Origin: Escherichia phage AV108
Length of the DNA: 64,000 nt
Sequence record: OR352938.1
Strand: one strand, 5' to 3'
Shown here: in pieces, positions 8,735 through 62,402 of the stretch
Layout of the letters: each line of letters starts with the position of its first letter
Position numbering within the stretch: the first letter of the stretch is position 1
Translations under genes and position numbers: made by a program
The notes under the pieces: model-generated
What the model was told of the DNA's origin: nothing
What the model saw: the letters and a program-made list of their open reading frames with translations, nothing else
The model's database searches: none

Positions 8735-9016
8735 TTATTTTCTGTTGTACTTCTGCCACTTTCTGTAATACTGCTTGTAAAATTGTTTAATGTTTGGTGG
8801 TTCGTCACTATACATGTTATCAACCATCATGTCAATAAGACCTTCCGGTGTTTGATAGTTACCCGCTCGAATGAGTTCCTTAATCAAAAGATCTTGTGCC
8901 GCTTTATACTTGACAATAACAACTGTCTTTTCTGCCTTTCCAATTCCGATCCGGTCGTTAGCTCTCATAGCATCCCACCAATCTTTTTTAAACTTCATGT
9001 TGTTAAATTTCATCAT
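8735..9016 (-). CDS. hypothetical protein
   Basis: 93-aa ORF in compact leftward array. Confidence 0.4.
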   Translation of the reverse strand: MMKFNNMKFKKDWWDAMRANDRIGIGKAEKTVVIVKYKAAQDLLIKELIRAGNYQTPEGLIDMMVDNMYSDEPPNIKQFYKQYYRKWQKYNRK

Positions 9017-9816
9017 TAACCCTTCTTATATTCGCAAACATATTGAGTACCATAATCATAGCTAATGCGACCTTTCTCGATGACTTCAAAGCGGATTTCA
9101 TCGTTTTCCCCTACCCACATTTTGTACTCGTTGAAGTATCCTGCTACATCCGGTTTGCTCATACCAACAACCATATTTTTATATTGTTTGCTGCGTGTCA
9201 GATTTGATTTAAACACTTCGCGCTCATCAACATATACGAAAGAAGACAATTCACCTTCGGTCATGGTCATTTTCAGCTTGCCGCCCTTATTGCCATAAGT
9301 AGAGTTGCCATACAATGGATCTTTGCGGCTGTCTGTTTCAATACCATCAATGATTTTCCATGTAAATTTTGCAATGCACTGATAAGTGATAGATCCAGAG
9401 ATTTTCTCTTCTTTCTTCTGTTCTTCCACCACTTTTTCTTCCTGTTTCGGTTGTTCTTCTTCAACCTTCGCAGAAGTCTCTGAATCGCTTTCTGACGCGG
9501 TTTCTTCTTTAGGTAATACATTCATCAAGTTTTGGATTTGAGCGTTGTATACAGCCTCCAGTGGCTGAATCTGCCCGATATTGATCATTGTGTCACGAAC
9601 AGTTTTATTCCAGTTTCGTTGCTCTTGTTTCAGAGACGGATCAATCTTAACAGCCTTAACATACACCTCATGAAGTTTAGAGTCCAGTGCGGAGATAGAC
9701 TCATTAGCACAAATAAACTTCTCTGATTTGGTAGTAGCTTTAGCGCAATCAAAGGACGCAGCGTTAGCACCGAAAGCAGTAGCAGAAAGAACGATAGCAG
9801 CGATAATGTTTTTCAT
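9016..9816 (-). CDS. secreted protein with LprI/DUF1311-like N-terminal domain
   Basis: Signal peptide MKNIIAAIVLSATAFGANA; mature N-terminus FDCAKATTKSEKFICANESISALDSKLHEVY fits the lysozyme-inhibitor LprI-type motif. Confidence 0.55.
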   Translation of the reverse strand: MKNIIAAIVLSATAFGANAASFDCAKATTKSEKFICANESISALDSKLHEVYVKAVKIDPSLKQEQRNWNKTVRDTMINIGQIQPLEAVYNAQIQNLMNVLPKEETASESDSETSAKVEEEQPKQEEKVVEEQKKEEKISGSITYQCIAKFTWKIIDGIETDSRKDPLYGNSTYGNKGGKLKMTMTEGELSSFVYVDEREVFKSNLTRSKQYKNMVVGMSKPDVAGYFNEYKMWVGENDEIRFEVIEKGRISYDYGTQYVCEYKKG

Positions 9817-9843: not shown

Positions 9844-9878
9844 GGGAGTATCTTACTACTCCCTTAATCCGGTGTCAA
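9844..9878 (-). promoter_or_regulatory. sigma70-type early promoter with stem-loop over the -10 (PeSL-like)
   Basis: Leftward TTGACA-N17-TAAGAT; inverted repeat gggagta/tactccc flanks the -10. Confidence 0.6.
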
Positions 9879-9885
9879 CTACTTT

Positions 9886-10098
9886 TTAATTTTTACCCGC
9901 TCGTGCATTAATACGCATTTTCTGCATAGCCATGATCTGGTTTACTGCTTCTTCTTTACGTTCTTGCGTGATAACGTGACCAGATTCAGCAAACTCTCCC
10001 GCAACTTCTTCTACGATCTCGCGAACTTGAGAACGTCCAAAGATGCGGTTTCCTTCGTAGCTCATAAATTCAGTCACTACTTGCTCAATAGATTTCAT
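9886..10098 (-). CDS. hypothetical protein
   Basis: About 70 aa from MKSIEQ with AAGGAG RBS; the track ORF begins inside the promoter. Confidence 0.4.
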   Translation of the reverse strand: MKSIEQVVTEFMSYEGNRIFGRSQVREIVEEVAGEFAESGHVITQERKEEAVNQIMAMQKMRINARAGKN

Positions 10099-10121
10099 GT
10101 GATTCTCCTTTAGTTTGGTAT

Positions 10122-10156
10122 GGGAGTATAATACTACTCCCATTTCTTTACGTCAA
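10122..10156 (-). promoter_or_regulatory. sigma70-type early promoter with stem-loop (PeSL-like)
   Basis: TTGACG-N17-TATTAT leftward; hairpin gggagta-taatac-tactccc. Confidence 0.6.
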
Positions 10157-10159
10157 CAA

Positions 10160-10321
10160 CTATTTTAAATTATTTTCGACCTTCATCCATTCCGCGTATT
10201 CTTGCGCGGCTACTTTCGGATTTAGTCCGTCTTCGTACATTGCTTCAAGTAATTCTTCGTCGGTGGGCTTATATCCTAGATAAGCCTCCACCTGATTTTT
10301 CCAAATTTTATACCAGTTCAT
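10160..10321 (-). CDS. hypothetical protein
   Basis: About 53 aa from MNWYKIW; the track ORF overlaps the upstream gene. Confidence 0.3.
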   Translation of the reverse strand: MNWYKIWKNQVEAYLGYKPTDEELLEAMYEDGLNPKVAAQEYAEWMKVENNLK

Positions 10322-10325
10322 ATTA

Positions 10326-10598
10326 TCACCAATCAAGAGCGCGTGTCTCTGCGTCTTCCCATGCTTGATCCATAACAGCCTTGAAAACATATTCTAGAGT
10401 ATCATCTTTAGAGAATCCGAAGACCTTAGACGGGATATCTTCAATTGCTACTCCCGCAACTTCTGCATTACGCGCTTGGCAATAATGCAACTCTAAGTTA
10501 TCGAGATAGCGACCGCCTAATTTATCCATATCATCCCAGCATTTCCAGTAACCTACTTGATCTGCAATTGCTAACACTTTGCTGTTTTTGTTGCTCAT
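10326..10598 (-). CDS. hypothetical protein
   Basis: About 90 aa from MSNKNSKV; RBS upstream. Confidence 0.4.
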   Translation of the reverse strand: MSNKNSKVLAIADQVGYWKCWDDMDKLGGRYLDNLELHYCQARNAEVAGVAIEDIPSKVFGFSKDDTLEYVFKAVMDQAWEDAETRALDW

Positions 10599-10629
10599 CT
10601 TTGATTCTCCTTTTGTTTGGTATGGGTGT

Positions 10630-10658
10630 ATTATGCAATGCTGGATTTGTGAAGTCAA
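10630..10658 (-). promoter_or_regulatory. sigma70-type early promoter
   Basis: TTGACT-N17-CATAAT leftward, directly downstream of a terminator. Confidence 0.55.
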
Positions 10659-10671
10659 CAACTTTTTAAAA

Positions 10672-10698
10672 TAAAAAAGCCGACCACAAGGATCGGCT
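10672..10698 (-). terminator. intrinsic terminator
   Basis: Hairpin gccgacc-acaa-ggatcggc with flanking T-run on the leftward strand. Confidence 0.6.
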
Positions 10699-10708
10699 TA
10701 ATAATCAG

Positions 10709-17292: not shown

Positions 17293-17487
17293 TTATACAT
17301 TTTCAATCACCCATTGCAGATGGGCTTCTGCGTCAACCAGTTCAGCTCGGCTTTTCTCTAAGCACTTGCTGTATTCTTTACGTTCCCAATCAGCAATTTC
17401 GTTTTTCAGGACTTCTTCATAGTAAGCAATTACGCCTTTCAGGTCTGAAACTTTACGGCTTGCCAGTTCGATGTAATGGTTACGCAT
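17293..17487 (-). CDS. hypothetical protein
   Basis: 64-aa ORF with AAGGAG RBS. Confidence 0.35.
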   Translation of the reverse strand: MRNHYIELASRKVSDLKGVIAYYEEVLKNEIADWERKEYSKCLEKSRAELVDAEAHLQWVIENV

Positions 17488-17697
17488 TTTGATTCTCCTT
17501 TGTTACTAGATAACGAATTTGGTCTTGCATTGCGATCAGTTCCCAGCGTGCTACTTTCATCATAGAAACTGACTCTTTGAACATAATATTAGCTTTTTCC
17601 TTTTCCCCTGTCAAGTAGATTTCTGCAATTTTTCACAAAATTTTTGAGTTTCTTCATTCTTAAACGGTTTCATATAAGTCAACCTTTTGTTTTCGAT

Positions 17698-17732
17698 GGG
17701 GATATTATGATATATCCCCGATCCAGTGTCAA
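17698..17732 (-). promoter_or_regulatory. sigma70-type early promoter with stem-loop (PeSL-like)
   Basis: TTGACA-N17-CATAAT; 8-bp inverted repeat ggggatat/atatcccc encloses the -10; GATC adjacent. Confidence 0.55.
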
Positions 17733-18040: not shown

Positions 18041-18063
18041 TATTAAATCCTCATAAAAGAAAA

Positions 18064-18102
18064 GGGAGACTCCCATTATAGAGAATCTCCCTTGTATGTC
18101 AA
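18064..18102 (-). promoter_or_regulatory. sigma70-type early promoter with stem-loop
   Basis: TTGACA-N16-TATAAT; gggaga/tctccc inverted repeat around the -10; overlaps the 3' end of gene 39. Confidence 0.55.
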
Positions 18103-18105
18103 GTG

Positions 18106-19929
18106 TTATGATTGCATCCAAATTTTGCGTTGATCTGCATCTTCACTATAGAGCAAATCGAATAGCTCTTTATAGTTTTCCGGTAACGTGATGATCTCCA
18201 TTACAGGATCGTTGATCACGCGATGATAATCGGATTCTGTGAGCGATGCCAACCCTTTGATATATCGAATGTTATAACCTTTGATATTATCTCGGTCGTT
18301 CTCGAAATCTTCTAGGTCATAATACCATCGAACATCATCACCTTTCTTTGGTTCCGCAATGATAATAGGTGTTTTGATAAACCTGATTCGTCCATCTTCG
18401 AACAATTCAGGCCAACGTGCAAAGAAAGAGATCAGACTAGGTTTAATAGACCCGATCCCGTCAGTATCAGCGTCTGTCATAATCGCAATATTTTTGTATT
18501 GCATAACTTCCAATGCATCAACACCAAATTGCAAGCCAGTGATCGCCATGATGTTAAAAATTTCGGCGTTCTTAACGATCTTTGCCTCCGGTTGTTCCCA
18601 CGTTGTAAGAGTTTTGCCTCGCAACGGGAAACCGCCATGTAAATCTTGATCACGTACAGAGATCAGATAGTTGATTGCGGAATCACCTTCTGTCAAAAAC
18701 AGGGTAGTTTCTGCGTCAGTTCCAATAAGGTTAGCTTTAACGTGTTTTGCTACCTTAGCCCGTTTCGCTGCCTTCGCTGCCTTAGTCGCTGCCGCTTTAT
18801 CTGCTGCCTCTTTGCGTGCCAGGACTACAGCAATAATAGGCATAATAATGTTTTCTTTCTTCGCAATGACTTTAGCCAGCTTTTTAAAATCAAGATCAAT
18901 ATGACGCTTGATATCACCAGTTGGATTAGTCAAGCGTTCTTTTGTCTGTGAATCAAAACGGAGGTTAGGCAATTCACGAACAATCAAAATACAGGTCAAT
19001 CCAGACTTAACCGCAGCTTTAGTAACATCAACCTTATATTCTTTCTTGATTCGTTTTACAATCTCTTCACAAAGATCATCTGTCACGTAGTCTACGTGTG
19101 TTCCCCCGTTTTTGGTAAACAGACCATTAGCAAAGGATACTGATTTAAAACCTTCTCCCTCGACCGCCGGAACTAGAGCAAGTGAAAAGTTTTTATCTTC
19201 AATGACAAACGGATCATCATTGTATAGTTTAGCATAATCCTTGAACTTACTAACAATACGTTTACCATTAAACTTAAACGTGATCTTAGGAAAGATTACG
19301 CTCAATGATTGCAGACGATCATGAACAATATCTAAAACAGAGTTGTCCATCATATAACCTTCGAAGTGGTCGAAGTCTGGGCAAAATGTAACCTTTGTTC
19401 CCTTCAATTTTGATGGTTTTGACGACCATGTGATATTTTCAGCGCCGTTTGTGCACTGTACGGTCATTTCTGTTTCGCCGTCACATGTTACACCAGTAAA
19501 CCAATCGCTAAAGAAATTTGACAACGACGACCCCACACCGTTCATCCCTTGCGTTAATCGATTGGTATCATCAAAGTTAGACCCTGCTTTTGTTCGTGTC
19601 CATGCGGCTACAGGTTGCGGAATCTGCGTACCCTCTGGGGTAGTAACCATATGTTGAGGAATACCGCGACCATTGTCTGTTACCGTAACAATATTGTTTT
19701 GGATATCGACGCTAATCACATTGGCAAATTCAAAGTTAGTGCGGATCGCCTCGTCTACAGAGTTGTCGATGATCTCATCAATGATTTTAACCAGTCCAGG
19801 AACATATGAAATTTTTGTCCACTTACCGAACAGGAAACGTTGATGTTCTTCGTAAGTTGTTGATCCTATGTACATTCCTGCACGCTTAAGGACATGTTCA
19901 CGATCAGATAAAATGCGAAACTCACTCAT
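18106..19929 (-). CDS. 39: DNA topoisomerase II large subunit (GyrB-like), single polypeptide
   Basis: 607 aa; ILSDREHVLKRAGMYIGS and GHKL/TOPRIM features; longer than T4 gp39, consistent with the gene 60 portion being fused. Confidence 0.9.
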   Translation of the reverse strand: MSEFRILSDREHVLKRAGMYIGSTTYEEHQRFLFGKWTKISYVPGLVKIIDEIIDNSVDEAIRTNFEFANVISVDIQNNIVTVTDNGRGIPQHMVTTPEGTQIPQPVAAWTRTKAGSNFDDTNRLTQGMNGVGSSLSNFFSDWFTGVTCDGETEMTVQCTNGAENITWSSKPSKLKGTKVTFCPDFDHFEGYMMDNSVLDIVHDRLQSLSVIFPKITFKFNGKRIVSKFKDYAKLYNDDPFVIEDKNFSLALVPAVEGEGFKSVSFANGLFTKNGGTHVDYVTDDLCEEIVKRIKKEYKVDVTKAAVKSGLTCILIVRELPNLRFDSQTKERLTNPTGDIKRHIDLDFKKLAKVIAKKENIIMPIIAVVLARKEAADKAAATKAAKAAKRAKVAKHVKANLIGTDAETTLFLTEGDSAINYLISVRDQDLHGGFPLRGKTLTTWEQPEAKIVKNAEIFNIMAITGLQFGVDALEVMQYKNIAIMTDADTDGIGSIKPSLISFFARWPELFEDGRIRFIKTPIIIAEPKKGDDVRWYYDLEDFENDRDNIKGYNIRYIKGLASLTESDYHRVINDPVMEIITLPENYKELFDLLYSEDADQRKIWMQS

Positions 19930-20873: not shown

Positions 20874-21125
20874 TTAAATATCCTCCGCGATGTGTCGGAA
20901 CAACTCCAGGTCGTTTTTATCTAACACTAGATTGCATTTGGTTGACCGATAATTGCAAACATTAATCAGTAAACTTTCCATCGCCTGTACCGACTGTACT
21001 TTATGTCGAAAAGACATTACATGTTGTGCATAATCAGCGTGAATTTTATCACGATGGAATGTTACGATGGCATCTAAACATAACAGTTTATCAAGTTCAT
21101 CAATAATCATCATATCAGGAACCAC
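20874..21125 (-). CDS. hypothetical protein
   Basis: 83-aa ORF. Confidence 0.35.
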   Translation of the reverse strand: MVPDMMIIDELDKLLCLDAIVTFHRDKIHADYAQHVMSFRHKVQSVQAMESLLINVCNYRSTKCNLVLDKNDLELFRHIAEDI

Positions 21126-21297
21126 GCTTAGTGAAGTGATCTATCATGGAATTAATACAATCGGCCTCGCTGATTCCAGATATACCCCATCCGTAGTTAC
21201 CCCACCTGAAATGCATGTATACACATTCGCCATGATACGATACTTTCACTTCGTCAAATTCTGGGATACTTCGCATAATCATAATAATATTCCTCAA
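21115..21297 (-). CDS. hypothetical protein
   Basis: 60-aa ORF; possible TTGACT promoter upstream. Confidence 0.3.
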   Translation of the reverse strand: MRNIIMIMRSIPEFDEVKVSYHGECVYMHFRWGNYGWGISGISEADCINSMIDHFTKRGS

Positions 21298-24907: not shown

Positions 24908-25471
24908 TCAAATAACATTAAACACTGCAAATTCACCGTGATACTTATACGCATAGTCATTATATACTATTGCGGCGTCTATTTCTAGGTCAAATTGTCC
25001 TATATAGACTTTATTTCCTTCATTGTCCCTTATCTGGGCGACCCATTTACCCGAACGACTATTATAATGCACTCCTTTAAAATTGCTAGTTTTAGTTTGG
25101 TTGTTTCTTCTCATATTTTGGGTATTCTGTTTTTGTGTCGCCTCTCTTAAGTTTGGAGGATCGTTGTTCTCTGGATTCCCGTCAATATGGTCAATGACAG
25201 GTGGGCAATACCCATGCTCTAAGAAGAATACTATTCTATGCACAAGCTCAAAATATTGTTTTCCTTCAAAAGAAAATGAGACTTTTAGGTGTCCGGCTGT
25301 GACTTTAGATACCTTTACTATATCACCAACCTTATAAAACTGGCCTTCTTTCGTCGTTCGGCTTGCTTTGCTGTTTGTTTTATGAATCAATATACCCCTT
25401 TCGTGTCTATATCTTCGACGTATTTCATCCTTTAATTCATCGCTCCATTCTTTGGCTTTCCTTACCCTCAC
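24908..25471 (-). CDS. free-standing HNH homing endonuclease with AP2 DNA-binding domain
   Basis: HNH motif HRIVFFLEHGYCPPVIDHIDGNPENNDPPNLREATQKQN; AP2-like FKGVHYNSRSGKWVAQI...YIGQFD...EIDAA. Confidence 0.75.
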   Translation of the reverse strand: MRVRKAKEWSDELKDEIRRRYRHERGILIHKTNSKASRTTKEGQFYKVGDIVKVSKVTAGHLKVSFSFEGKQYFELVHRIVFFLEHGYCPPVIDHIDGNPENNDPPNLREATQKQNTQNMRRNNQTKTSNFKGVHYNSRSGKWVAQIRDNEGNKVYIGQFDLEIDAAIVYNDYAYKYHGEFAVFNVI

Positions 25472-29892: not shown

Positions 29893-29916
29893 GAAAAAGG
29901 GGCACGTAGCCCCTTT
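29893..29916 (-). terminator. intrinsic terminator after uvsX
   Basis: ggggc-acgta-gcccc hairpin followed by T-run on the leftward strand. Confidence 0.55.
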
Positions 29917-29926
29917 ACTACCATTG

Positions 29927-30997
29927 TTATGCTAACATATCTTCGATTTCTTTGTCAACTGCTTCGTCGCTGATCACTTGCCCCAGCTTATAATGATCGT
30001 TGATTGCTTCGTTAAACTTATCGTTTGTCAGAAGTGGTTTCCAGAACTCAATGCTATTGGTTTCTTTAGCACGGAACTTGCGTTCTTCGGTTTCCATCTC
30101 TCCGGTCTCGGTATTCAGGATTGAACGAGAATACCAGCCGTTTGACGGTTTCACTACCCAGCCTAACTCTACAGCCAACTCCAGCAAACCGGAATAAGGA
30201 TCGATGCCACCGCTAAATGTTACGCTAATCGGGAACTTAGATTTTTCTTTAACGGTTCGTGATTTTTCCGCATTCAGGATAAAATCATAACCAGTAATTT
30301 CGGTTCCTTCTTTCTGCTGACGACGACCAATAATGAAAACTTCATTGGCTGAATACATCGCGCCAGTACCGCCGGACATAACGGTCTTACTAAACATTTC
30401 TTGCGTTTCGTAAGTGTGGTTAATAGCGATGCACGGGATATCATTCATAGTCAGATACGGCGTAACCATACGGAACAAGCCTTTAAGTGCTTTCGCTCGC
30501 GTCATATCCTGTGCGGATTTCTCATTAATCGCGTCTTCAACTTCTTTTTTACTTGCTAAGTTACCGATTGAGTCAATAAAGATGATCACTTTATCTTCAC
30601 GGGTAATTTGCTCAAGCTGGTTCATGATTTCAAATTTAAGTTCTTCGATGTTCTTGATTGGAACATGCACCACGCGATCAGGATCTACACCCATAGATTC
30701 CAGATATGCGGAAGTAATGCCAAACTCAGAATCAAAGAACAAGCACGCCGCATCAGGATTCTGTTTCATGTATGAACTAACACAAGTTAATCCCATGTTT
30801 GATTTAAAGTGCTTAGATGGACCAGCAAAGAAAATCAGACCAGATTGAAAGCCTTTTTTAAGATCACCTGAAAACGCAATATTCAGCATCGGGATCTTAG
30901 TGCGAGTATTTGTTTTTTCGTTAAAGAAGCTGGATTTAGACAGTACCGCAGTAGTTTTCAGGGTAGAGTTCTTTTTCAGTTTTTCCAGTACAGACAT
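29927..30997 (-). CDS. uvsX: UvsX recombinase (RecA-like)
   Basis: 356 aa; Walker A FAGPSKHFKS, Walker B IIFIDSIG, RecA-core features. Confidence 0.9.
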   Translation of the reverse strand: MSVLEKLKKNSTLKTTAVLSKSSFFNEKTNTRTKIPMLNIAFSGDLKKGFQSGLIFFAGPSKHFKSNMGLTCVSSYMKQNPDAACLFFDSEFGITSAYLESMGVDPDRVVHVPIKNIEELKFEIMNQLEQITREDKVIIFIDSIGNLASKKEVEDAINEKSAQDMTRAKALKGLFRMVTPYLTMNDIPCIAINHTYETQEMFSKTVMSGGTGAMYSANEVFIIGRRQQKEGTEITGYDFILNAEKSRTVKEKSKFPISVTFSGGIDPYSGLLELAVELGWVVKPSNGWYSRSILNTETGEMETEERKFRAKETNSIEFWKPLLTNDKFNEAINDHYKLGQVISDEAVDKEIEDMLA

Positions 30998-31197: not shown

Positions 31198-31241
31198 AGT
31201 ATATTTCTCACGTTGGCGGGTATCGTCACCCAACACCCGCC

Positions 31242-31269
31242 ATTATACACACTTTATCTTAAATGTCAA
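31242..31269 (-). promoter_or_regulatory. sigma70-type early promoter followed by 5' hairpin
   Basis: TTGACA-N16-TATAAT, then stable hairpin ggcgggt...acccgcc at about 31215-31241. Confidence 0.45.
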
Positions 31270-35964: not shown

Positions 35965-35989
35965 AAAAAGGGGAGTATTTACACTCCCC
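35965..35989 (-). terminator. intrinsic terminator between genes 45 and 44
   Basis: ggggagt-atttac-actcccc hairpin followed by TTTTT on the leftward strand. Confidence 0.5.
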
Positions 35990-36001
35990 ACAAACATTAT
36001 A

Positions 36002-36691
36002 TTAGTCGGTGTAGCTGGAGTCAAGGTCACACGCGATCATATAAGATACGGTTTCACTTGCCAGCCATACAGCCTTACGGCGAGTGAAGCTCAGTTTGTA
36101 ATCGCCGAAGTCAGTAGCAACCAGTTTCATGTTATCTTTACGAATAAAGAAATGGAAGTCTGCGGTTCCGGTATATTCGCCCATATCAAGACAAAACATC
36201 TCATTAGGATTATTTTTGTCAATCTCTTCCCAACCTTTGATCATCAGACGACCATCAATCGGAAGAAATTCAAGGCGATCCACTTTAAGCTGATTGCTCA
36301 TTTTCATAAGCTGTTTCAGATCGTCGTTGCTCAGTTCGTAATCTACATCGCTTGCAGGTGGAGTAACTCGGCCTTTCGGTGATACGATAGCAGCAGCACT
36401 AGCACCTGGATAATTAATTTTCAGACGATCATTAGACACACGAATGTTACCAGTGCGGTCATCAACCGTAATATCTGCTTCATCGCCTACCAGATTCAGA
36501 ATACCCAAGAAAGAGTTAAGATCATAGATCCCAATTTCGTGTTCCAGTTCTTGATTCAGAGTCGCTTCACCATAGACAACGTTTGTCATGTTTTTGGTGA
36601 TCAGGACGTTTCCTTTTTTCAGGATGATACCTGGGTTAATAGCGGAAAAGTTTTTCAGGGTAGCAATGGTTTCTTTAGTCAGTTTCATCAA
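36002..36691 (-). CDS. 45: sliding clamp
   Basis: 229 aa; N-terminus MKLTKETIATLKNFSAINPGIILK matches T4 gp45. Confidence 0.9.
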   Translation of the reverse strand: MMKLTKETIATLKNFSAINPGIILKKGNVLITKNMTNVVYGEATLNQELEHEIGIYDLNSFLGILNLVGDEADITVDDRTGNIRVSNDRLKINYPGASAAAIVSPKGRVTPPASDVDYELSNDDLKQLMKMSNQLKVDRLEFLPIDGRLMIKGWEEIDKNNPNEMFCLDMGEYTGTADFHFFIRKDNMKLVATDFGDYKLSFTRRKAVWLASETVSYMIACDLDSSYTD

Positions 36692-40785: not shown

Positions 40786-40814
40786 AGTATAACGGGGATT
40801 TCTCCCCGCGTCAA
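40786..40814 (-). promoter_or_regulatory. sigma70-type promoter with hairpin filling the spacer
   Basis: TTGACG-(cggggagaaatccccgt, 17 nt)-TATACT; overlaps the 3' end of gene 47. Confidence 0.5.
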
Positions 40815-44947: not shown

Positions 44948-45206
44948 AAATCGCCCTCAGTTCTTTATAGCCTCCAATGTGCTCGTTGTCAATGAATATC
45001 TGGGGGTATACAAACCGGAGGCTCTTTGAGTTCAGCCTCCCCGCCAGTTCTTCAATCATATCACGGTCGGGAATAATGTCAACCCCGACCTGCTTGAATA
45101 CTGGTTTAAGTGTATACGGAATACCCAGATCATCCAGTAGCTTCATTGCACTAATACAACCATAACAATGATAAGCCTCTTTCGGTATGCCGTATATCTC
45201 GATCAT
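44937..45206 (-). CDS. glutaredoxin-like protein (NrdH/NrdC family)
   Basis: CYGC active site; YPQIFIDNEHIGGY glutaredoxin signature. Confidence 0.7.
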   Translation of the reverse strand: MIEIYGIPKEAYHCYGCISAMKLLDDLGIPYTLKPVFKQVGVDIIPDRDMIEELAGRLNSKSLRFVYPQIFIDNEHIGGYKELRAIYDY

Positions 45207-45703: not shown

Positions 45704-46214
45704 TCAAAAATTCAACTTCACGACGTTTAATATCTTCTTGAAGGTCTTTAATCTTCTGTCGATCTTGCATGATTTCATCCATCTTGTCAAGTGCTGCAAT
45801 GAAATCATCGAAACGTTCAAAGGTTTTACCTTCATTTGCTTCGCTAAATTTAACCATAGTCAGACCGTAACGACTACTAAACAGACGTTTCAACTGTCCA
45901 ACGATCTTAGAATCAGTGGTTATAACTTCCAATTCTTCTACTTCTTGAAAGAATTTTCTATCAGAATCAATAAACCAGCTAGTTCCTTTATGGTTGCTAT
46001 CTTCGGTTGCACTCATTAGAGTATGGTCTTTACCATCAATTTCAATTACATCAATTTGCCCACATGGACTAACCTTTTTAACAGTAAAAGGTCTATAATT
46101 TATTGCTCGTGCAATAACATAATTAAGGTTAGATACGTTTTCAGCATAATGGCAGAAGTCGGTCATAGCATTCGCATCTTTCCAGGTGTAAGTTTTACCA
46201 ATTTCCCATTTCAT
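45681..46214 (-). CDS. paralogous-family protein B
   Basis: MKWEIGKTYTWK...PFTVKKVSPCGQIDVIEIDGKDH; tandem family member. Confidence 0.5.
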   Translation of the reverse strand: MKWEIGKTYTWKDANAMTDFCHYAENVSNLNYVIARAINYRPFTVKKVSPCGQIDVIEIDGKDHTLMSATEDSNHKGTSWFIDSDRKFFQEVEELEVITTDSKIVGQLKRLFSSRYGLTMVKFSEANEGKTFERFDDFIAALDKMDEIMQDRQKIKDLQEDIKRREVEFLIGKERGW

Positions 46215-46226
46215 AATATATTCCCC

Positions 46227-46706
46227 TTAACCGATTTTATCAAGTTCGTTTAATGCTTTCTCTGCTTCCTGTATAGCTTGCACCCTTTCCGGCATTTTGT
46301 CAAGAAAATCTTTCAACTCTTCAAAACTGGAGATATGACGCAAGGCGTTAGCACCGATAGCCGCATGTGATTTGCATTCAAAGCGGATTTTATAATTATC
46401 CATCGCCAACTTGAGAAGATCAATTAATTTAGATTCTTCTGGAATAATAATTTCTTCAAATCTGCTACGGTCATGATCCAGAAACCAACAAGATAGACCT
46501 ACATCGGTTGAACTCATATAAGTTCCATCATGAAGATAAACAGACCGCACGTATCCTTTTTTCGCATCAACCGACGCAACTTTAAACGGTAATCGCAGAT
46601 ATTTCAAATAATCAACATCATACCATTTAAAAAATTGGTTTGCATCTTTTACATCTTTCCACGCATAGGTCTTACCAGCTTCCCATTTCATAATATCATC
46701 TCTCAT
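46227..46706 (-). CDS. paralogous-family protein C
   Basis: MKWEAGKTYAWK...PFKVASVD; tandem family member. Confidence 0.5.
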   Translation of the reverse strand: MRDDIMKWEAGKTYAWKDVKDANQFFKWYDVDYLKYLRLPFKVASVDAKKGYVRSVYLHDGTYMSSTDVGLSCWFLDHDRSRFEEIIIPEESKLIDLLKLAMDNYKIRFECKSHAAIGANALRHISSFEELKDFLDKMPERVQAIQEAEKALNELDKIG

Positions 46707-47232
46707 TTTTGATACGTGATTCTAATTGGATCATACGGTCGCGCGTTTGTTTGTATTCTCGGATAGCACCGATCCGGCTAGGCATACCATCCAGTACGCT
46801 CTTAATACCTTCTAGGGTAGTAATTTTGGCAATGCTATTATGTAACCCCATCTTATCGATCAACTGAATGTCGTAGGCTTCCATAAGCAGACCCAAGCGT
46901 TCTAAAGTTAGGTCTTCTTCTTTTTCTTCCGAATCTGGAATCTTAGGTTCAATAGTAACTTCGGTAAAGAAACGACGCTCACCCGACCAAAACCACACGC
47001 CGGAACAACCAATAGGGGATTCTTTTAACGTCATAGAGTCGAAATTACTACCAATAATAGTAATTTCTCTAACATCACCATCATCGTCAAGGTCTTCTAC
47101 CCTAAACGGGCGACCAGCCAACAGGTCAACAATACATCTGTTAATAGACGACGAAAATTTAGTCAGTTCGGCTTTCGACGCTTCACATTCAATCTTGTAA
47201 GTTTTACCAACTTCCCATTCCATAATAATCAC
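46696..47232 (-). CDS. paralogous-family protein D
   Basis: MEWEVGKTYKIE...PFRVEDLDDDGDVREITIIG; tandem family member. Confidence 0.5.
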   Translation of the reverse strand: MIIMEWEVGKTYKIECEASKAELTKFSSSINRCIVDLLAGRPFRVEDLDDDGDVREITIIGSNFDSMTLKESPIGCSGVWFWSGERRFFTEVTIEPKIPDSEEKEEDLTLERLGLLMEAYDIQLIDKMGLHNSIAKITTLEGIKSVLDGMPSRIGAIREYKQTRDRMIQLESRIKNER

Positions 47233-47921: not shown

Positions 47922-47950
47922 AGTATAGGGGATCTCGCGATCCCCGTCAA
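47922..47950 (-). promoter_or_regulatory. sigma70-type promoter with hairpin filling the spacer, two GATC sites
   Basis: TTGACG-(gggatcgcgagatcccc)-TATACT. Confidence 0.5.
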
Positions 47951-49068: not shown

Positions 49069-49096
49069 ATTATACATTAGCTAATCATGTTGTCAA
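49069..49096 (-). promoter_or_regulatory. sigma70-type early promoter
   Basis: TTGACA-N16-TATAAT immediately downstream of the nrdD terminator. Confidence 0.55.
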
Positions 49097-49102
49097 CACC
49101 CC

Positions 49103-49139
49103 AAAACGAAAAAGCCGACCCTTTCGGATCGGCTAAAAA
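49103..49139 (-). terminator. intrinsic terminator after nrdD
   Basis: agccgacc-cttt-cggatcggct hairpin flanked by A/T runs. Confidence 0.6.
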
Positions 49140-51543: not shown

Positions 51544-51573
51544 AATATAATCCTCTCGTTGTTAAGTGGGAGT

Positions 51574-51601
51574 ATTATAGCATACTCCCTTCGCATGTCA
51601 A
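51574..51601 (-). promoter_or_regulatory. sigma70-type early promoter with stem-loop (PeSL-like)
   Basis: TTGACA-N16-TATAAT; hairpin gggagta...tactccc over the -10. Confidence 0.55.
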
Positions 51602-52776: not shown

Positions 52777-52808
52777 AATATAATCCTCTCGTTGTTTAGA
52801 TGGGAGTA

Positions 52809-52837
52809 TCTTACTACTCCCGTTTCATCATGTCAAG
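52809..52837 (-). promoter_or_regulatory. sigma70-type early promoter with stem-loop (PeSL-like)
   Basis: TTGACA-N17-TAAGAT; hairpin gggagta-tcttac-tactccc identical in type to 9844-9863. Confidence 0.55.
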
Positions 52838-53686: not shown

Positions 53687-53717
53687 TGTTGATTCTCCTT
53701 CTTGATTAGATGGGAAT

Positions 53718-53748
53718 ATTTTACTACTCCCATTTCATGTTTGTCAAC
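53718..53748 (-). promoter_or_regulatory. sigma70-type early promoter with stem-loop
   Basis: TTGACA-N18-TAAAAT; hairpin gggaata...tactccc. Confidence 0.45.
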
Positions 53749-54248: not shown

Positions 54249-54542
54249 TTAACCATTAATCTTGTTTTTGACTACAAAGGATCTGAACTCATCAAAACCA
54301 CCTATATAATCACCATTATAGAAAATCTGCGGCATGGTGGCAATAACTTCTACCCCTGCGCGATCCTGAATGTCGGCAATGATAGAATCAATCTTTACCG
54401 GACGACCGTTTTCGTCTACACCATCATTAACCGGAATGTAGATGTAAGGGATCTTACGCGATTCACAAAGGCGCTTTGCATTCTGGCAATACTTACAGTT
54501 GTAACCTTCAAAACCAAAAATTTCTACCATATTATACCTCAA
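54249..54542 (-). CDS. nrdC: thioredoxin/glutaredoxin NrdC
   Basis: CKYCQNAKRL active site and MPQIFYNGDYIGGFDEFR match T4 NrdC. Confidence 0.8.
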   Translation of the reverse strand: MRYNMVEIFGFEGYNCKYCQNAKRLCESRKIPYIYIPVNDGVDENGRPVKIDSIIADIQDRAGVEVIATMPQIFYNGDYIGGFDEFRSFVVKNKING

Positions 54543-55351
54543 TCTACGTTAGTTACATAAACTTCTTGCGTATCAGAAGACTTGCCACCTGAACGATCTA
54601 GGCAATAGGTCTTATTCAACAGGACGCAGTTTAGATCATTCCGCTTGATAAAGTCAAGAAGATGATCATTTACCTTTCCCTTATGATGCGTGACATTACT
54701 GATACCAAACTGAAAACCACGCGCCATAATAGATTCTACCCACTGATAGAATTTAATCTCTTCCTCGTCACTCCAGAACTTATTATATTCCGCAGAAGTG
54801 ATAAGATACGGCGGGTCCAAATAAACGAAATCACCTGGCAAGATCTCGATCTCGTCATATCGTCCAGAAGTAAAAATGATTCGACCGTCTTTGTTTTCTT
54901 CCTTAAAATTCAGGACACGCTCTACCGCGTTTTCGTTAAAAGTCCGGCGACCAAAATTAGCATTAAATTCTCCCTTTCGGTTATGGCGGTTAATGTTGCT
55001 AAAACTGTGCTGAATCAACACAAACAGCGATAGCGGATCTGGATTCTCGTTATACTTCTTACGAAATGTCATGTAAGCGTCTTTATCTTCGCGAGACAAA
55101 TCATTTTCGGCAATAATCCGCTTGATCGTAGAAACCGGATCAGGACACTCGTCAATCGCTTTGTACGCGTCAATTAAGCGGTGATCATAGTCATTAGCCA
55201 GCACATCCCCTTCGACGTACAGAGACACGCTCAAGCCTCCACAAAAGGCATCAACAAAGCGGTTATAGTGCTTAGGGAAATACTTACTAACACCTGGCAA
55301 TAGCTTTTCCTTATTGCCAGTATAGGGAATTAAACCTAATGCTTTCTTCAT
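54539..55351 (-). CDS. dam: DNA adenine methyltransferase (GATC)
   Basis: Match to T4 Dam: NRFVDAFCGGLSVSL (SAM binding), DFVYLDPPYLITSAEYNKFWS (DPPY motif). Confidence 0.9.
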   Translation of the reverse strand: MKKALGLIPYTGNKEKLLPGVSKYFPKHYNRFVDAFCGGLSVSLYVEGDVLANDYDHRLIDAYKAIDECPDPVSTIKRIIAENDLSREDKDAYMTFRKKYNENPDPLSLFVLIQHSFSNINRHNRKGEFNANFGRRTFNENAVERVLNFKEENKDGRIIFTSGRYDEIEILPGDFVYLDPPYLITSAEYNKFWSDEEEIKFYQWVESIMARGFQFGISNVTHHKGKVNDHLLDFIKRNDLNCVLLNKTYCLDRSGGKSSDTQEVYVTNVD

Positions 55352-56935: not shown

Positions 56936-56972
56936 ATGCGGTCATTATATGATAACCGCATTTTCATGTCAA
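56936..56972 (-). promoter_or_regulatory. sigma70-type early promoter with stem-loop
   Basis: TTGACA-N17-TATAAT; inverted repeat tgcggt...accgca around the -10. Confidence 0.5.
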
Positions 56973-57619: not shown

Positions 57620-57648
57620 AGTATAGGGGATCACCGATCCCCTGTCAA
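57620..57648 (-). promoter_or_regulatory. sigma70-type promoter with hairpin filling the spacer, two GATC sites
   Basis: TTGACA-(ggggatcggtgatcccc, 17 nt)-TATACT. Confidence 0.55.
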
Positions 57649-57656
57649 CAACTTTT

Positions 57657-57920
57657 TTATGATTTTAGTGAATTAACCACTACATCAAAATGATGTACAG
57701 AGCACACCTTACGAAACACATACTCATCATGTTTAGGGGTCGCCCCCAACCTCTCTATTTCGCTCGCCATAACGACAAACTGTTTATCTGGTGCATATGC
57801 CTTGTGTGCTTCAACAACGCACGGAAAACGCGTTTTAGAGAGTTCTGGATAGTTTTCTGAATCCAGAAGGACGATGAATACCCTATTACATTGATTGTAG
57901 AATCCGGTTTTTGATTTCAT
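57657..57920 (-). CDS. hypothetical protein
   Basis: About 87 aa; start uncertain, overlaps the upstream ORF. Confidence 0.3.
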   Translation of the reverse strand: MKSKTGFYNQCNRVFIVLLDSENYPELSKTRFPCVVEAHKAYAPDKQFVVMASEIERLGATPKHDEYVFRKVCSVHHFDVVVNSLKS

Positions 57921-58227: not shown

Positions 58228-58481
58228 AGTTTCCTCAACCAGTTATTCAAGCGAGTAAACCATGATGCTTTTCGTGCTTCTTTTACTTTATGTGCACGTA
58301 AACCACTGAAACACCATTCATAATCATCACTGAAACATGATTCAACAGGAACACCCGCATTTCGTAGTTCTCTGGTCTTTATCATGAATCCTTGACATAA
58401 GGGGCGACCTTCAACAATGATAGGAAGTTTAACTTTTTCCATGAAAGTATACCCAGCACGGTCAATAATTTCAATTTTCAT
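58224..58481 (-). CDS. hypothetical protein
   Basis: 85-aa ORF. Confidence 0.4.
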   Translation of the reverse strand: MKIEIIDRAGYTFMEKVKLPIIVEGRPLCQGFMIKTRELRNAGVPVESCFSDDYEWCFSGLRAHKVKEARKASWFTRLNNWLRKL

Positions 58482-59694: not shown

Positions 59695-59722
59695 ATTATA
59701 GCATTGTGATTATCTTTGTCAA
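59695..59722 (-). promoter_or_regulatory. sigma70-type early promoter
   Basis: TTGACA-N16-TATAAT directly downstream of a terminator. Confidence 0.55.
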
Positions 59723-59726
59723 CACC

Positions 59727-59760
59727 CAAAAACAAAAAAAGGCTACCCCGAAGGATAGCC
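59727..59760 (-). terminator. intrinsic terminator after the gp38-like gene
   Basis: ggctatcc-ttcg-gggtagcc hairpin followed by a long T-run on the leftward strand. Confidence 0.55.
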
Positions 59761-59768
59761 CATAAAAA

Positions 59769-62096: not shown

Positions 62097-62125
62097 TATG
62101 TGCATTATGCTATACCCTATTCCGG
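62097..62125 (-). promoter_or_regulatory. sigma70-type early promoter
   Basis: TTGACA-N17-CATAAT immediately downstream of a terminator. Confidence 0.55.
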
Positions 62126-62130
62126 TTGTC

Positions 62131-62166
62131 AACACCTAAAAACGAAAAAGCCACCCTTTCGGATGG
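62131..62166. terminator. hairpin terminator
   Basis: agccaccc-tttc-ggatggct hairpin flanked by A-run and T-run; same sequence family as 49103-49139. Confidence 0.5.
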
Positions 62167-62402
62167 CTTTTTGATTATATTTTATTCACGTCCATTTGTA
62201 TAGTAGTGTTTGAATCGACCTTTGCTAAACTAGTTAAACATAGTAACCAATTCACCATCCCTTTCCAATGATAACCCTTCCTCATCTTAGACGGGTCTTC
62301 CGATTCGGTAGTAATTGAACACGCGAAAGTATGAGGAAGCCAAATAGTTGTGTTAATGCTAGTATTCTTTTACTTCTGGTATGCATCCCACAGTGACTAA
62401 CA

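Follow-up and report, generated by a model that had tools for sequence, protein, structure and literature searches.

Hairpins overlapping early promoters of Escherichia phage AV108 belong to the known family of promoter-early stem-loops

The early genes of Escherichia phage AV108 are punctuated by short inverted repeats that overlap the -10 hexamer of promoter-like sequences, two of them within positions 9844-10156. What these hairpins are, what they do to transcription, and whether they mark sites where genes are exchanged is the question raised by this locus. We analyzed it in the context of the window, the whole 64,000-nt stretch of record OR352938.1. The initial annotation listed seven such hairpins and placed the -10 of a leftward sigma70-like promoter inside each. 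All seven are present, read on the minus strand, and at every site the -10 lies in a 6-nt loop. The coordinates needed only trivial corrections (18064 to 18062, 52803 to 52802), and the variant stems reported for 17698, 18062 and 51568 are as described, save for shifts of 1-2 nt. At all seven sites the minus strand reads TTGAC(A/G) and, after 16-18 nt, TAnnAT or CATAAT, with a Shine-Dalgarno sequence (SD) and ATG 30-35 nt past the -10. The list was incomplete: an eighth member with the same geometry (56936-56961) had been missed, as had elements of other subclasses. The eight members of the -10-overlapping class, each labelled as a promoter-early stem-loop (PeSL), and the small gene enclosed by the first two are as follows.

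9844-9878, minus strand: PeSL upstream of the ORF262 homologue; -35 TTGACA at 9878-9873, -10 TAAGAT at 9855-9850, ATG at 9816; hairpin 9863-9844, GGGAGTA.gtaaga.TACTCCC
9886-10098, minus strand: 70-aa ORFan, homologue of phi1 ORF264, between two GGGAGTA-type PeSLs, forming a PeSL+ORFan cassette
10120-10156, minus strand: PeSL upstream of the ORF264 homologue; -35 TTGACG at 10156-10151, -10 TATTAT at 10133-10128, ATG at 10098; hairpin 10143-10120, ATGGGAGTA.gtatta.TACTCCCAT
17698-17732, minus strand: PeSL upstream of the ORF004 homologue; TTGACA-N17-CATAAT; hairpin 17698-17719, GGGGATAT.atcata.ATATCCCC, the type of phi1 PeSL199/198
18062-18102, minus strand: PeSL upstream of the ORF005 homologue; TTGACA-N16-TATAAT, its -10 placed precisely in the loop; hairpin 18062-18093, 13-bp stem AAGGGAGATTCTC/GGGAGTCTCCCTT followed by TTTTCTTTT
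51568-51601, minus strand: PeSL upstream of the ORF057 homologue; TTGACA-N16-TATAAT; hairpin 51568-51589, GGGAGTAT.gctata.ATACTCCC
52802-52836, minus strand: PeSL upstream of frd.2/goF; TTGACA-N17-TAAGAT; hairpin identical to that at 9844
53710-53747, minus strand: PeSL upstream of the ORF060 homologue; TTGACA-N18-TAAAAT; hairpin at 53710, ATGGGAGTA.gtaaaa.TATTCCCAT, with one G·T pair
56936-56972, minus strand: eighth PeSL; TTGACA-N17-TATAAT; hairpin 56936-56961 with the unrelated stem ATGCGGTTAT.catata.ATGACCGCAT

Within this class the -10 hexamer is always contained in the 6-nt loop at an offset of 0-2 nt, and the 3' arm ends 5-7 nt past the -10. All seven hairpins of the original list fold as RNA, with dG between -11.5 and -21.3 kcal/mol and z-scores of -2.9 to -4.8; among the twelve hairpins folded, every one is stable over the same energy range (z -2.1 to -4.9). 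The orthologue of the 9844 promoter is annotated in phage GEC-3S, which also carries an annotated terminator and promoter at the site corresponding to 18062, the sole -10-overlapping member with a U-run. A Pfam search with the 70-aa ORFan returned no match. The neighbouring ORF262 homologue (9016-9816, minus strand, 266 aa) has a hydrophobic N-terminus and a weak Pfam match to LprI, a lysozyme inhibitor; its segment 9046-9415 has a divergent sequence in RB49, LF73P4 and OZ035808. In the ORF004 homologue (17480-17674, minus strand) an A-run has lost 1 nt (A6 in Phi1, RB49 and GEC-3S, A5 here), which splits a 64-aa ORF; this may be a genuine frameshift or a sequencing error in the homopolymer.

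The window shares 96-97% identity with phi1, RB49, GEC-3S, JSE and over 50 further Krischvirus records, and its minus-strand genes from about 6850 onward are counterparts of phi1 ORF255-274 and ORF001-089. By this identity we assign the DNA to Krischvirus, T4-like phages of the RB49/phi1 type and the genus in which PeSLs were defined. PeSLs were defined in phi1 and RB49, with 52 and 51 elements respectively (Arbiol, Comeau, Kutateladze, Adamia and Krisch 2010, Genome Biol Evol 2:140; PMC2839356). An element combines a near-consensus sigma70 promoter, preceded by an AT-rich region, with a G(n)-loop-C(n) stem-loop, and an SD and ATG follow; the stem-loop lies most commonly in the -35/-10 spacer or over the -10 (PMC2839356; PMC4122927). 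The RB49/phi1 type is given as Gn-loop-Cn with TTGACA-N17-TATAAT (Comeau et al. 2014; PMC4122927). Every sequence-level feature of this definition is found in the window elements, and their original identification as PeSL-like stands. Orthologues of the window PeSLs occur at 96-97% identity in phi1 and RB49. The GGGAGTA and GGGGATAT hairpin-promoters recur in phi1, in the hyperplastic ORF185-212 region that PMC2839356 examined, where PeSL205/204 is of the GGGAGTA type and 199/198 of the GGGGATAT type. The hairpins of the window are the published PeSL cassettes, rediscovered in a member of the defining genus, and as such are already known. Promoter and terminator activity in lacZ fusions and mini-circles recovered by inverse PCR have been reported for phi1/RB49 elements only (PMC2839356), and by homology the window elements would be expected to have the same promoter and terminator activity. 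We found no functional follow-up of PeSLs in the post-2014 literature, and Rfam, searched with the full window at gathering thresholds, gave no match.

All five published positional subclasses of PeSL are present, and the 57-kb early region holds some 20 elements: eight over the -10, three in the spacer, one over the -35, four upstream of the -35 and three downstream of the -10. In every element listed, the promoter departs from consensus at no more than 2 of 12 positions and its spacer measures 16-18 nt. The members outside the -10-overlapping class are given below.

40786-40814, minus strand: spacer-class PeSL; hairpin at 40792, GCGGGGA.gaaa.TCCCCGT; promoter annotated in GEC-3S
47922-47950, minus strand: spacer-class PeSL; hairpin at 47928, GGGGATC.gcga.GATCCCC, between -35 and -10
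57620-57648, minus strand: spacer-class PeSL; TTGACA, AGGGGATC.ggt.GATCCCCT, TATACT; hairpin at 57625
45055-45090, minus strand: promoter-like site of the class overlapping the -35; -35 in the loop of GGTCGGGG...TCCCGACC, hairpin at 45065; inside or at the end of a CDS
10630-10699, minus strand: terminator-promoter PeSL; AAGCCGATC...GGTCGGCTT and a T-run at 10699-10677, then TTGACT-N17-CATAAT at 10658-10630
49069-49134, minus strand: terminator-promoter PeSL downstream of nrdD; hairpin (49113) and T-run, then TTGACA-N16-TATAAT; terminator and promoter annotated in GEC-3S; belongs to repeat family D16
59695-59761, minus strand: terminator-promoter PeSL downstream of gene 38; hairpin 59740; annotated in GEC-3S
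62104-62172, minus strand: terminator-promoter PeSL; hairpin 62145; annotated in GEC-3S
29896-29958, minus strand: promoter-like site with the hairpin downstream of the -10; TTGACA-N18-TAGCAT, AAAGGGGC...GCCCCTTT, then a T-run
31214-31269, minus strand: PeSL flanking gene 43 on its 3' side; TTGACA-N16-TATAAT and, immediately downstream of the -10, a 12-bp hairpin; early promoter annotated in both RB49 and GEC-3S
35970-36024, minus strand: PeSL between genes 45 and 44; TTGACT-N17-TATAAT, then GGGGAGTG.taaa.TACTCCCC and TTTTT

Gene 43 has been reported as PeSL-flanked (PMC2839356). The hairpin at 35970-35989 had been set apart in the initial annotation as one that serves as a terminator instead of overlapping a promoter. 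Its tail of five T residues agrees with a terminator, and GEC-3S has a terminator annotated there; the "instead" does not hold, since a promoter (TTGACT-N17-TATAAT, 36024-35996) lies 6 nt upstream, where RB49 has a hypothetical early promoter. Because the hairpin has an upstream promoter of its own, it belongs to the subclass with the hairpin downstream of the -10 and is not a bare terminator. The spacer hairpins at 57625-57643 and 47928-47945 (minus strand) each contain a pair of GATC (Dam) sites within the -35/-10 spacer, and the phage itself encodes a Dam methylase (54539-55351).

Could such hairpins be chance inverted repeats in AT-rich promoter DNA? Their short stems of 7-9 bp, and nothing further, speak for this explanation. 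A search of the window for GGGAGTA-N6-TACTCCC with at most 2 mismatches returned 4 matches (9844-9863, 10122-10141, 52802-52821 and 53712-53731), against 0.05 expected from dinucleotide shuffles; the motif search proposed in the initial annotation, run on the window, puts the motif above the expectation from base composition. Strong hairpins are concentrated between genes: 21 of 35 in the early region lie in intergenic DNA, which makes up 4.9% of bases (p=4e-19). Hairpins with a loop of 6 nt are in register with a -10 in 7 of 11 cases (p=7e-16), and the hairpins are conserved in more than 10 genomes. The motif count, both p-values and the conservation refute chance, to which we assign practically no probability.

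The promoters themselves stand out only under a stringent scan. With at most 2 mismatches in 12, the 57-kb early region contains 57 sigma70-like sites on the minus (coding) strand and 7 on the plus strand, compared with 8.9+-3.1 in shuffles, and in a separate promoter/terminator scan all promoter matches of at least 11/12 lie on the minus strand. A loose 9-of-12 promoter/terminator scan barely exceeds shuffles (66 vs 57; 80 vs 57), so the stringent matches alone are informative. A hairpin accompanies 17 of the 23 promoter-like sites with an intergenic -10, and 15 of these 23 have a -10-to-ATG spacing of 30-35 nt. AT content in the 25 nt upstream of the intergenic sites averages 0.67 against 0.60 for the window, a modest enrichment, and motifs of the AAAATTAAAAAGTAG-TTGACA type can be read upstream of the -35 in these cassettes. 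The genes downstream of PeSLs are frd.2 and the homologues of ORF262, 264, 004, 005, 057, 060 and 068; those tested against Pfam have a weak match at most. In an unbiased repeat search the PeSL cassettes, together with SD/start regions, came out as the principal families of dispersed repeats in the window, and the depositors of GEC-3S and RB49 annotated promoters and/or terminators at orthologous sites. Inside CDSs on the sense strand lie 34 stringent sites (6850-64000; for example 15161, 17119 and 33998), several of them perfect 12/12 matches and their number well above the roughly 9 that shuffles predict for the entire region. These are probably internal early promoters, as in the RB49 annotation.

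The initial annotation also proposed that the elements are recombination hotspots, to be recognized by comparing their positions with synteny breakpoints. We compared the window over its whole length with five relatives: Phi1, RB49, GEC-3S, LF73P4 and OZ035808. Both elements of the 9844-10156 segment, direct repeats spaced by 278 bp, lie on indel junctions. At the 9844 PeSL the junction (9876-9896) is seen against phi1, RB49 and OZ035808: phi1 has ORF263 and ORF263.1 here (491 bp), RB49 and OZ035808 have ORF263 (~200 bp), and the window has neither. At the 10120 PeSL (junction 10163-10178), GEC-3S, LF73P4 and OZ035808 are longer by about 500 bp. The ORF262-266 segment as a whole contains three to five PeSLs, in a different cassette combination in each of the six genomes. 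PeSL-9878 of the window joins the upstream flank of RB49 PeSL-10970 to the core of RB49 PeSL-10747, as would be expected of the deletion product of a crossover in the AT-rich/-35 portion (Fig. 3 of PMC2839356). Half-hairpin chimeras are seen in GEC-3S, LF73P4 and OZ035808; promoters in several genomes retain the 3' arm only (TATTATACTCCCAT), implying a crossover in the loop. LF73P4 has an additional ORF and a GGGAGTA-type PeSL at 10595-10631, with a 37-bp junction overlap in the 5'UTR, and its homology ends at a junction near 57666, which is 18 nt upstream of the 57625 element's -35. The junctions bounded by PeSLs fall in AT-rich/-35 or 5'UTR segments, mostly outside the stems. These comparisons show the 9844-10156 segment to be a PeSL recombination hotspot.

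The association does not extend to all rearrangements. The early region has about 14 junctions of indels or replacements. Of these, only 4 fall in PeSL footprints, which cover ~3-4% of the region; homing-endonuclease insertions account for one that abuts a PeSL and for three at other sites, and the remainder lie in coding or paralogous repeats. At 46166-46212, 58405-58481 and 21111-21159 the crossovers took place between gene starts of paralogues or between coding repeats, and RB49 ORF040 and a GEC-3S HNH gene explain two further indels unrelated to PeSLs. The hotspot proposal therefore holds for both elements of the segment, but many indels are not PeSL-associated; the breakpoint comparison gives a clear enrichment that is not exclusive, in agreement with the statement in PMC4122927.

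Two junctions were considered as PeSL-mediated and rejected. The one at 46166-46212 is a crossover between paralogous gene starts, where the "promoter" abuts the ATG. About 245 bp present there in all five relatives are lost in the window, and 46175-47228 (minus strand) contains three tandem paralogous genes with a common N-terminus (MKWEIGKTYTWKD...). The LF73P4 junction at 18102-18134 is an HNH-AP2 homing-endonuclease insertion beside a PeSL: 589 bp between gene 39 and the 18062 element, ending in the AT-rich upstream region of that PeSL. The window has a gene of similar kind between genes 56 and 61 (24908-25471, minus strand; 187 aa, HNH_3 and AP2, homing-endonuclease-like). The 588-bp segment 24891-25480 is missing in all five relatives, which have 11 bp in its place.

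Taken with the published work, it is very probable that the elements are PeSL composite regulatory cassettes of RB49/phi1-type phages, which insulate genes and recombine. Each cassette forms a stereotyped block of ~70-100 bp, running from an upstream stop codon in an AT-rich stretch through promoter and hairpin to the SD and ATG. Transcription by the host's sigma70 RNA polymerase would begin about 7 nt past the -10, which in the -10-overlapping and spacer classes is at or just beyond the last base of the stem. With the start at or past the end of the hairpin, the promoter's own mRNA would be free of it, and only read-through RNA from upstream could fold. The hairpin would attenuate, terminate or 3'-cap upstream transcripts and so insulate each small gene, a role for which the lacZ support concerns one spacer-class stem-loop. 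Because many copies have 20-70 bp of sequence in common, the phage's homologous recombination machinery crosses over between PeSLs, by which the flanked ORFs are deleted, inserted or swapped, as the genome comparisons show.

A T-run follows the hairpins at 10677, 49113, 59740, 62145, 18062 and 35970, which share with intrinsic (Rho-independent) terminators a GC-rich intergenic hairpin. By contrast, the U-tract of such terminators is missing in 7 of 8 -10-overlapping and all three spacer hairpins (tails such as ATCAAGAAAA and ACCAAACTAA), so these are not canonical intrinsic terminators. In the accessible text of PMC2839356 the termination assay, a lacZ fusion, concerns a single spacer-class stem-loop, that of the 211/210 locus. 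In the phi1 sequence this stem-loop reads GGGGATC-GGT-GATCCCC and matches the window hairpin at 57625. No report of a termination test on a GGGAGTA-type stem-loop was found in the literature accessible to us. With the published test confined to the spacer class, a terminator or attenuator role in the -10-overlapping class is one that we infer.

The stems were compared at orthologous loci from GenBank phage records, in up to 13 genomes; an IMG/VR search with the frd.2 protein had yielded 3 loci only. Stem pairs were counted on loop-anchored sequences, as MAFFT anchored on the -10 and moved the hairpin register by one column. Unrelated stems (GGGAGTA, GGGGATAT, GCGGTTAT and GGGAGATTCTC) retain their pairing, the 6-nt loop and the register, and each of the stem positions 1-7 shows at least two Watson-Crick pair types. 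What is conserved in the hairpins is structure, not sequence. Single-sided transitions among orthologues produced a sense-strand G·T pair in 9 independent cases and an A·C pair in 1, located at an outermost pair; the one-sided binomial value is 0.011. Transversion mismatches number about 6. The wobble bias is suggestive, from a small sample of changes in the 3' arm only, of folding by the sense strand, as RNA or non-template DNA, over a duplex operator or symmetric cruciform. Selection on the stems as a single strand, so suggested, is a point not addressed in published PeSL work. Some orthologues have G·A stem mismatches, or have lost the 5' arm and kept the promoter, so the hairpin is dispensable in at least some contexts. 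One such mismatch, TACTCCC to TACTACC, recurs in orthologues of the 51568, 52802 and 10120 PeSLs, in Makalu_001, ECD7 and GEC-3S/OZ035808, that is, in three PeSLs of different genomes; it may reflect gene conversion between PeSL copies.

The constant 6-nt loop, the end at the predicted start and the lack of a U-tract mean that these hairpins may differ from ordinary terminators. They could constitute a distinct strand-specific device, either an RNA 3'-end cap or non-canonical attenuator acting on read-through transcripts, or a non-template DNA hairpin for sigma70 or recombination nucleases, although we consider this improbable. Still lower is the probability we give to the hairpin acting simply as DNA, as a recognition or cleavage target for a structure- or sequence-specific protein that initiates recombination (for example endonuclease VII, gp46/47 or some recombinase), or as an extruded hairpin offering sigma70 a single-stranded -10. 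Arbiol et al. suggested a recombination protein binding GGGG...CCCC and mapped one mini-circle crossover to the loop (PMC2839356); in the window a loop of 6 nt invariably holds the -10, and crossovers inside the loop or the -10 are implied by the half-hairpin chimeras. Yet the stems differ between families and offer no single recognition sequence, for which reason we also rejected a reading of the hairpins as one operator. The ratio of G·T to A·C changes fits the folding of one strand and not a two-armed cruciform or duplex operator, and the mapped junctions lie mostly at the AT-rich/-35 edge or in the 5'UTR, not in the stem. Stems of 7-9 bp are also poorly extruded as cruciforms.

The hairpin might, finally, be functionless, carried along as the promoter cassettes spread as repeats and homogenized by gene conversion between them. 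Copies nearly identical across 20-70 bp, the recurrent TACTACC change, such as gene conversion would give, and the persistence of chimeric promoters that have no hairpin are in line with this. The idea is at odds with independent stems that maintain pairing, loop size and register to the -10, with the wobble bias of stem substitutions, with the enrichment of strong hairpins in intergenic DNA and with the published reporter result for one stem-loop (PMC2839356). We regard it as very unlikely, and retain the interpretation of the elements as insulating and recombining cassettes.

Set beside the phi1/RB49 PeSLs (PMC2839356), nothing substantial differs in the window elements. They come from a common genus at 96-97% nucleotide identity and are alike in their TTGACA-N17-TATAAT promoters, AT-rich upstream regions, G(n)-loop-C(n) hairpins and five positional subclasses, as well as in their sites upstream of small ORFans and their association with indels. 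What is particular to the window is its own stem wobbles and its own cassette content, which is without ORF263/263.1 and without the ~500-bp block of GEC-3S. The PeSLs and PmSLs of T4/PST and KVP40/nt-1 (Comeau, Arbiol and Krisch 2014; PMC4122927) are likewise composites of promoter and stem-loop found in hyperplastic regions and at indels, but differ in their promoters (TTTACW...TAYWAT and TTGYVH...TAWWAT, respectively) and stems (AGnA-loop-TCnT and A3-4G3-loop-C3T3-4). On sequence grounds we assign the window elements to the RB49/phi1 type and not to either of these. Lambdoid morons and Botstein-type linkers offer a looser parallel, as self-contained units of promoter, gene and terminator and as conserved linkers proposed to be points of exchange (PMC2839356); in the window phage, by contrast, the repeated promoter cassette is itself the recombination substrate.

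PeSLs are among the few concrete proposals for how large lytic phages without transposases or integrases shuffle their accessory genes. The elements of the window introduce no new principle, but show the mechanism visibly still at work across more than 58 Krischvirus genomes. The new angles are limited to the sense-strand wobble bias and the absent U-tract, which sharpen the question of the hairpin's own role.
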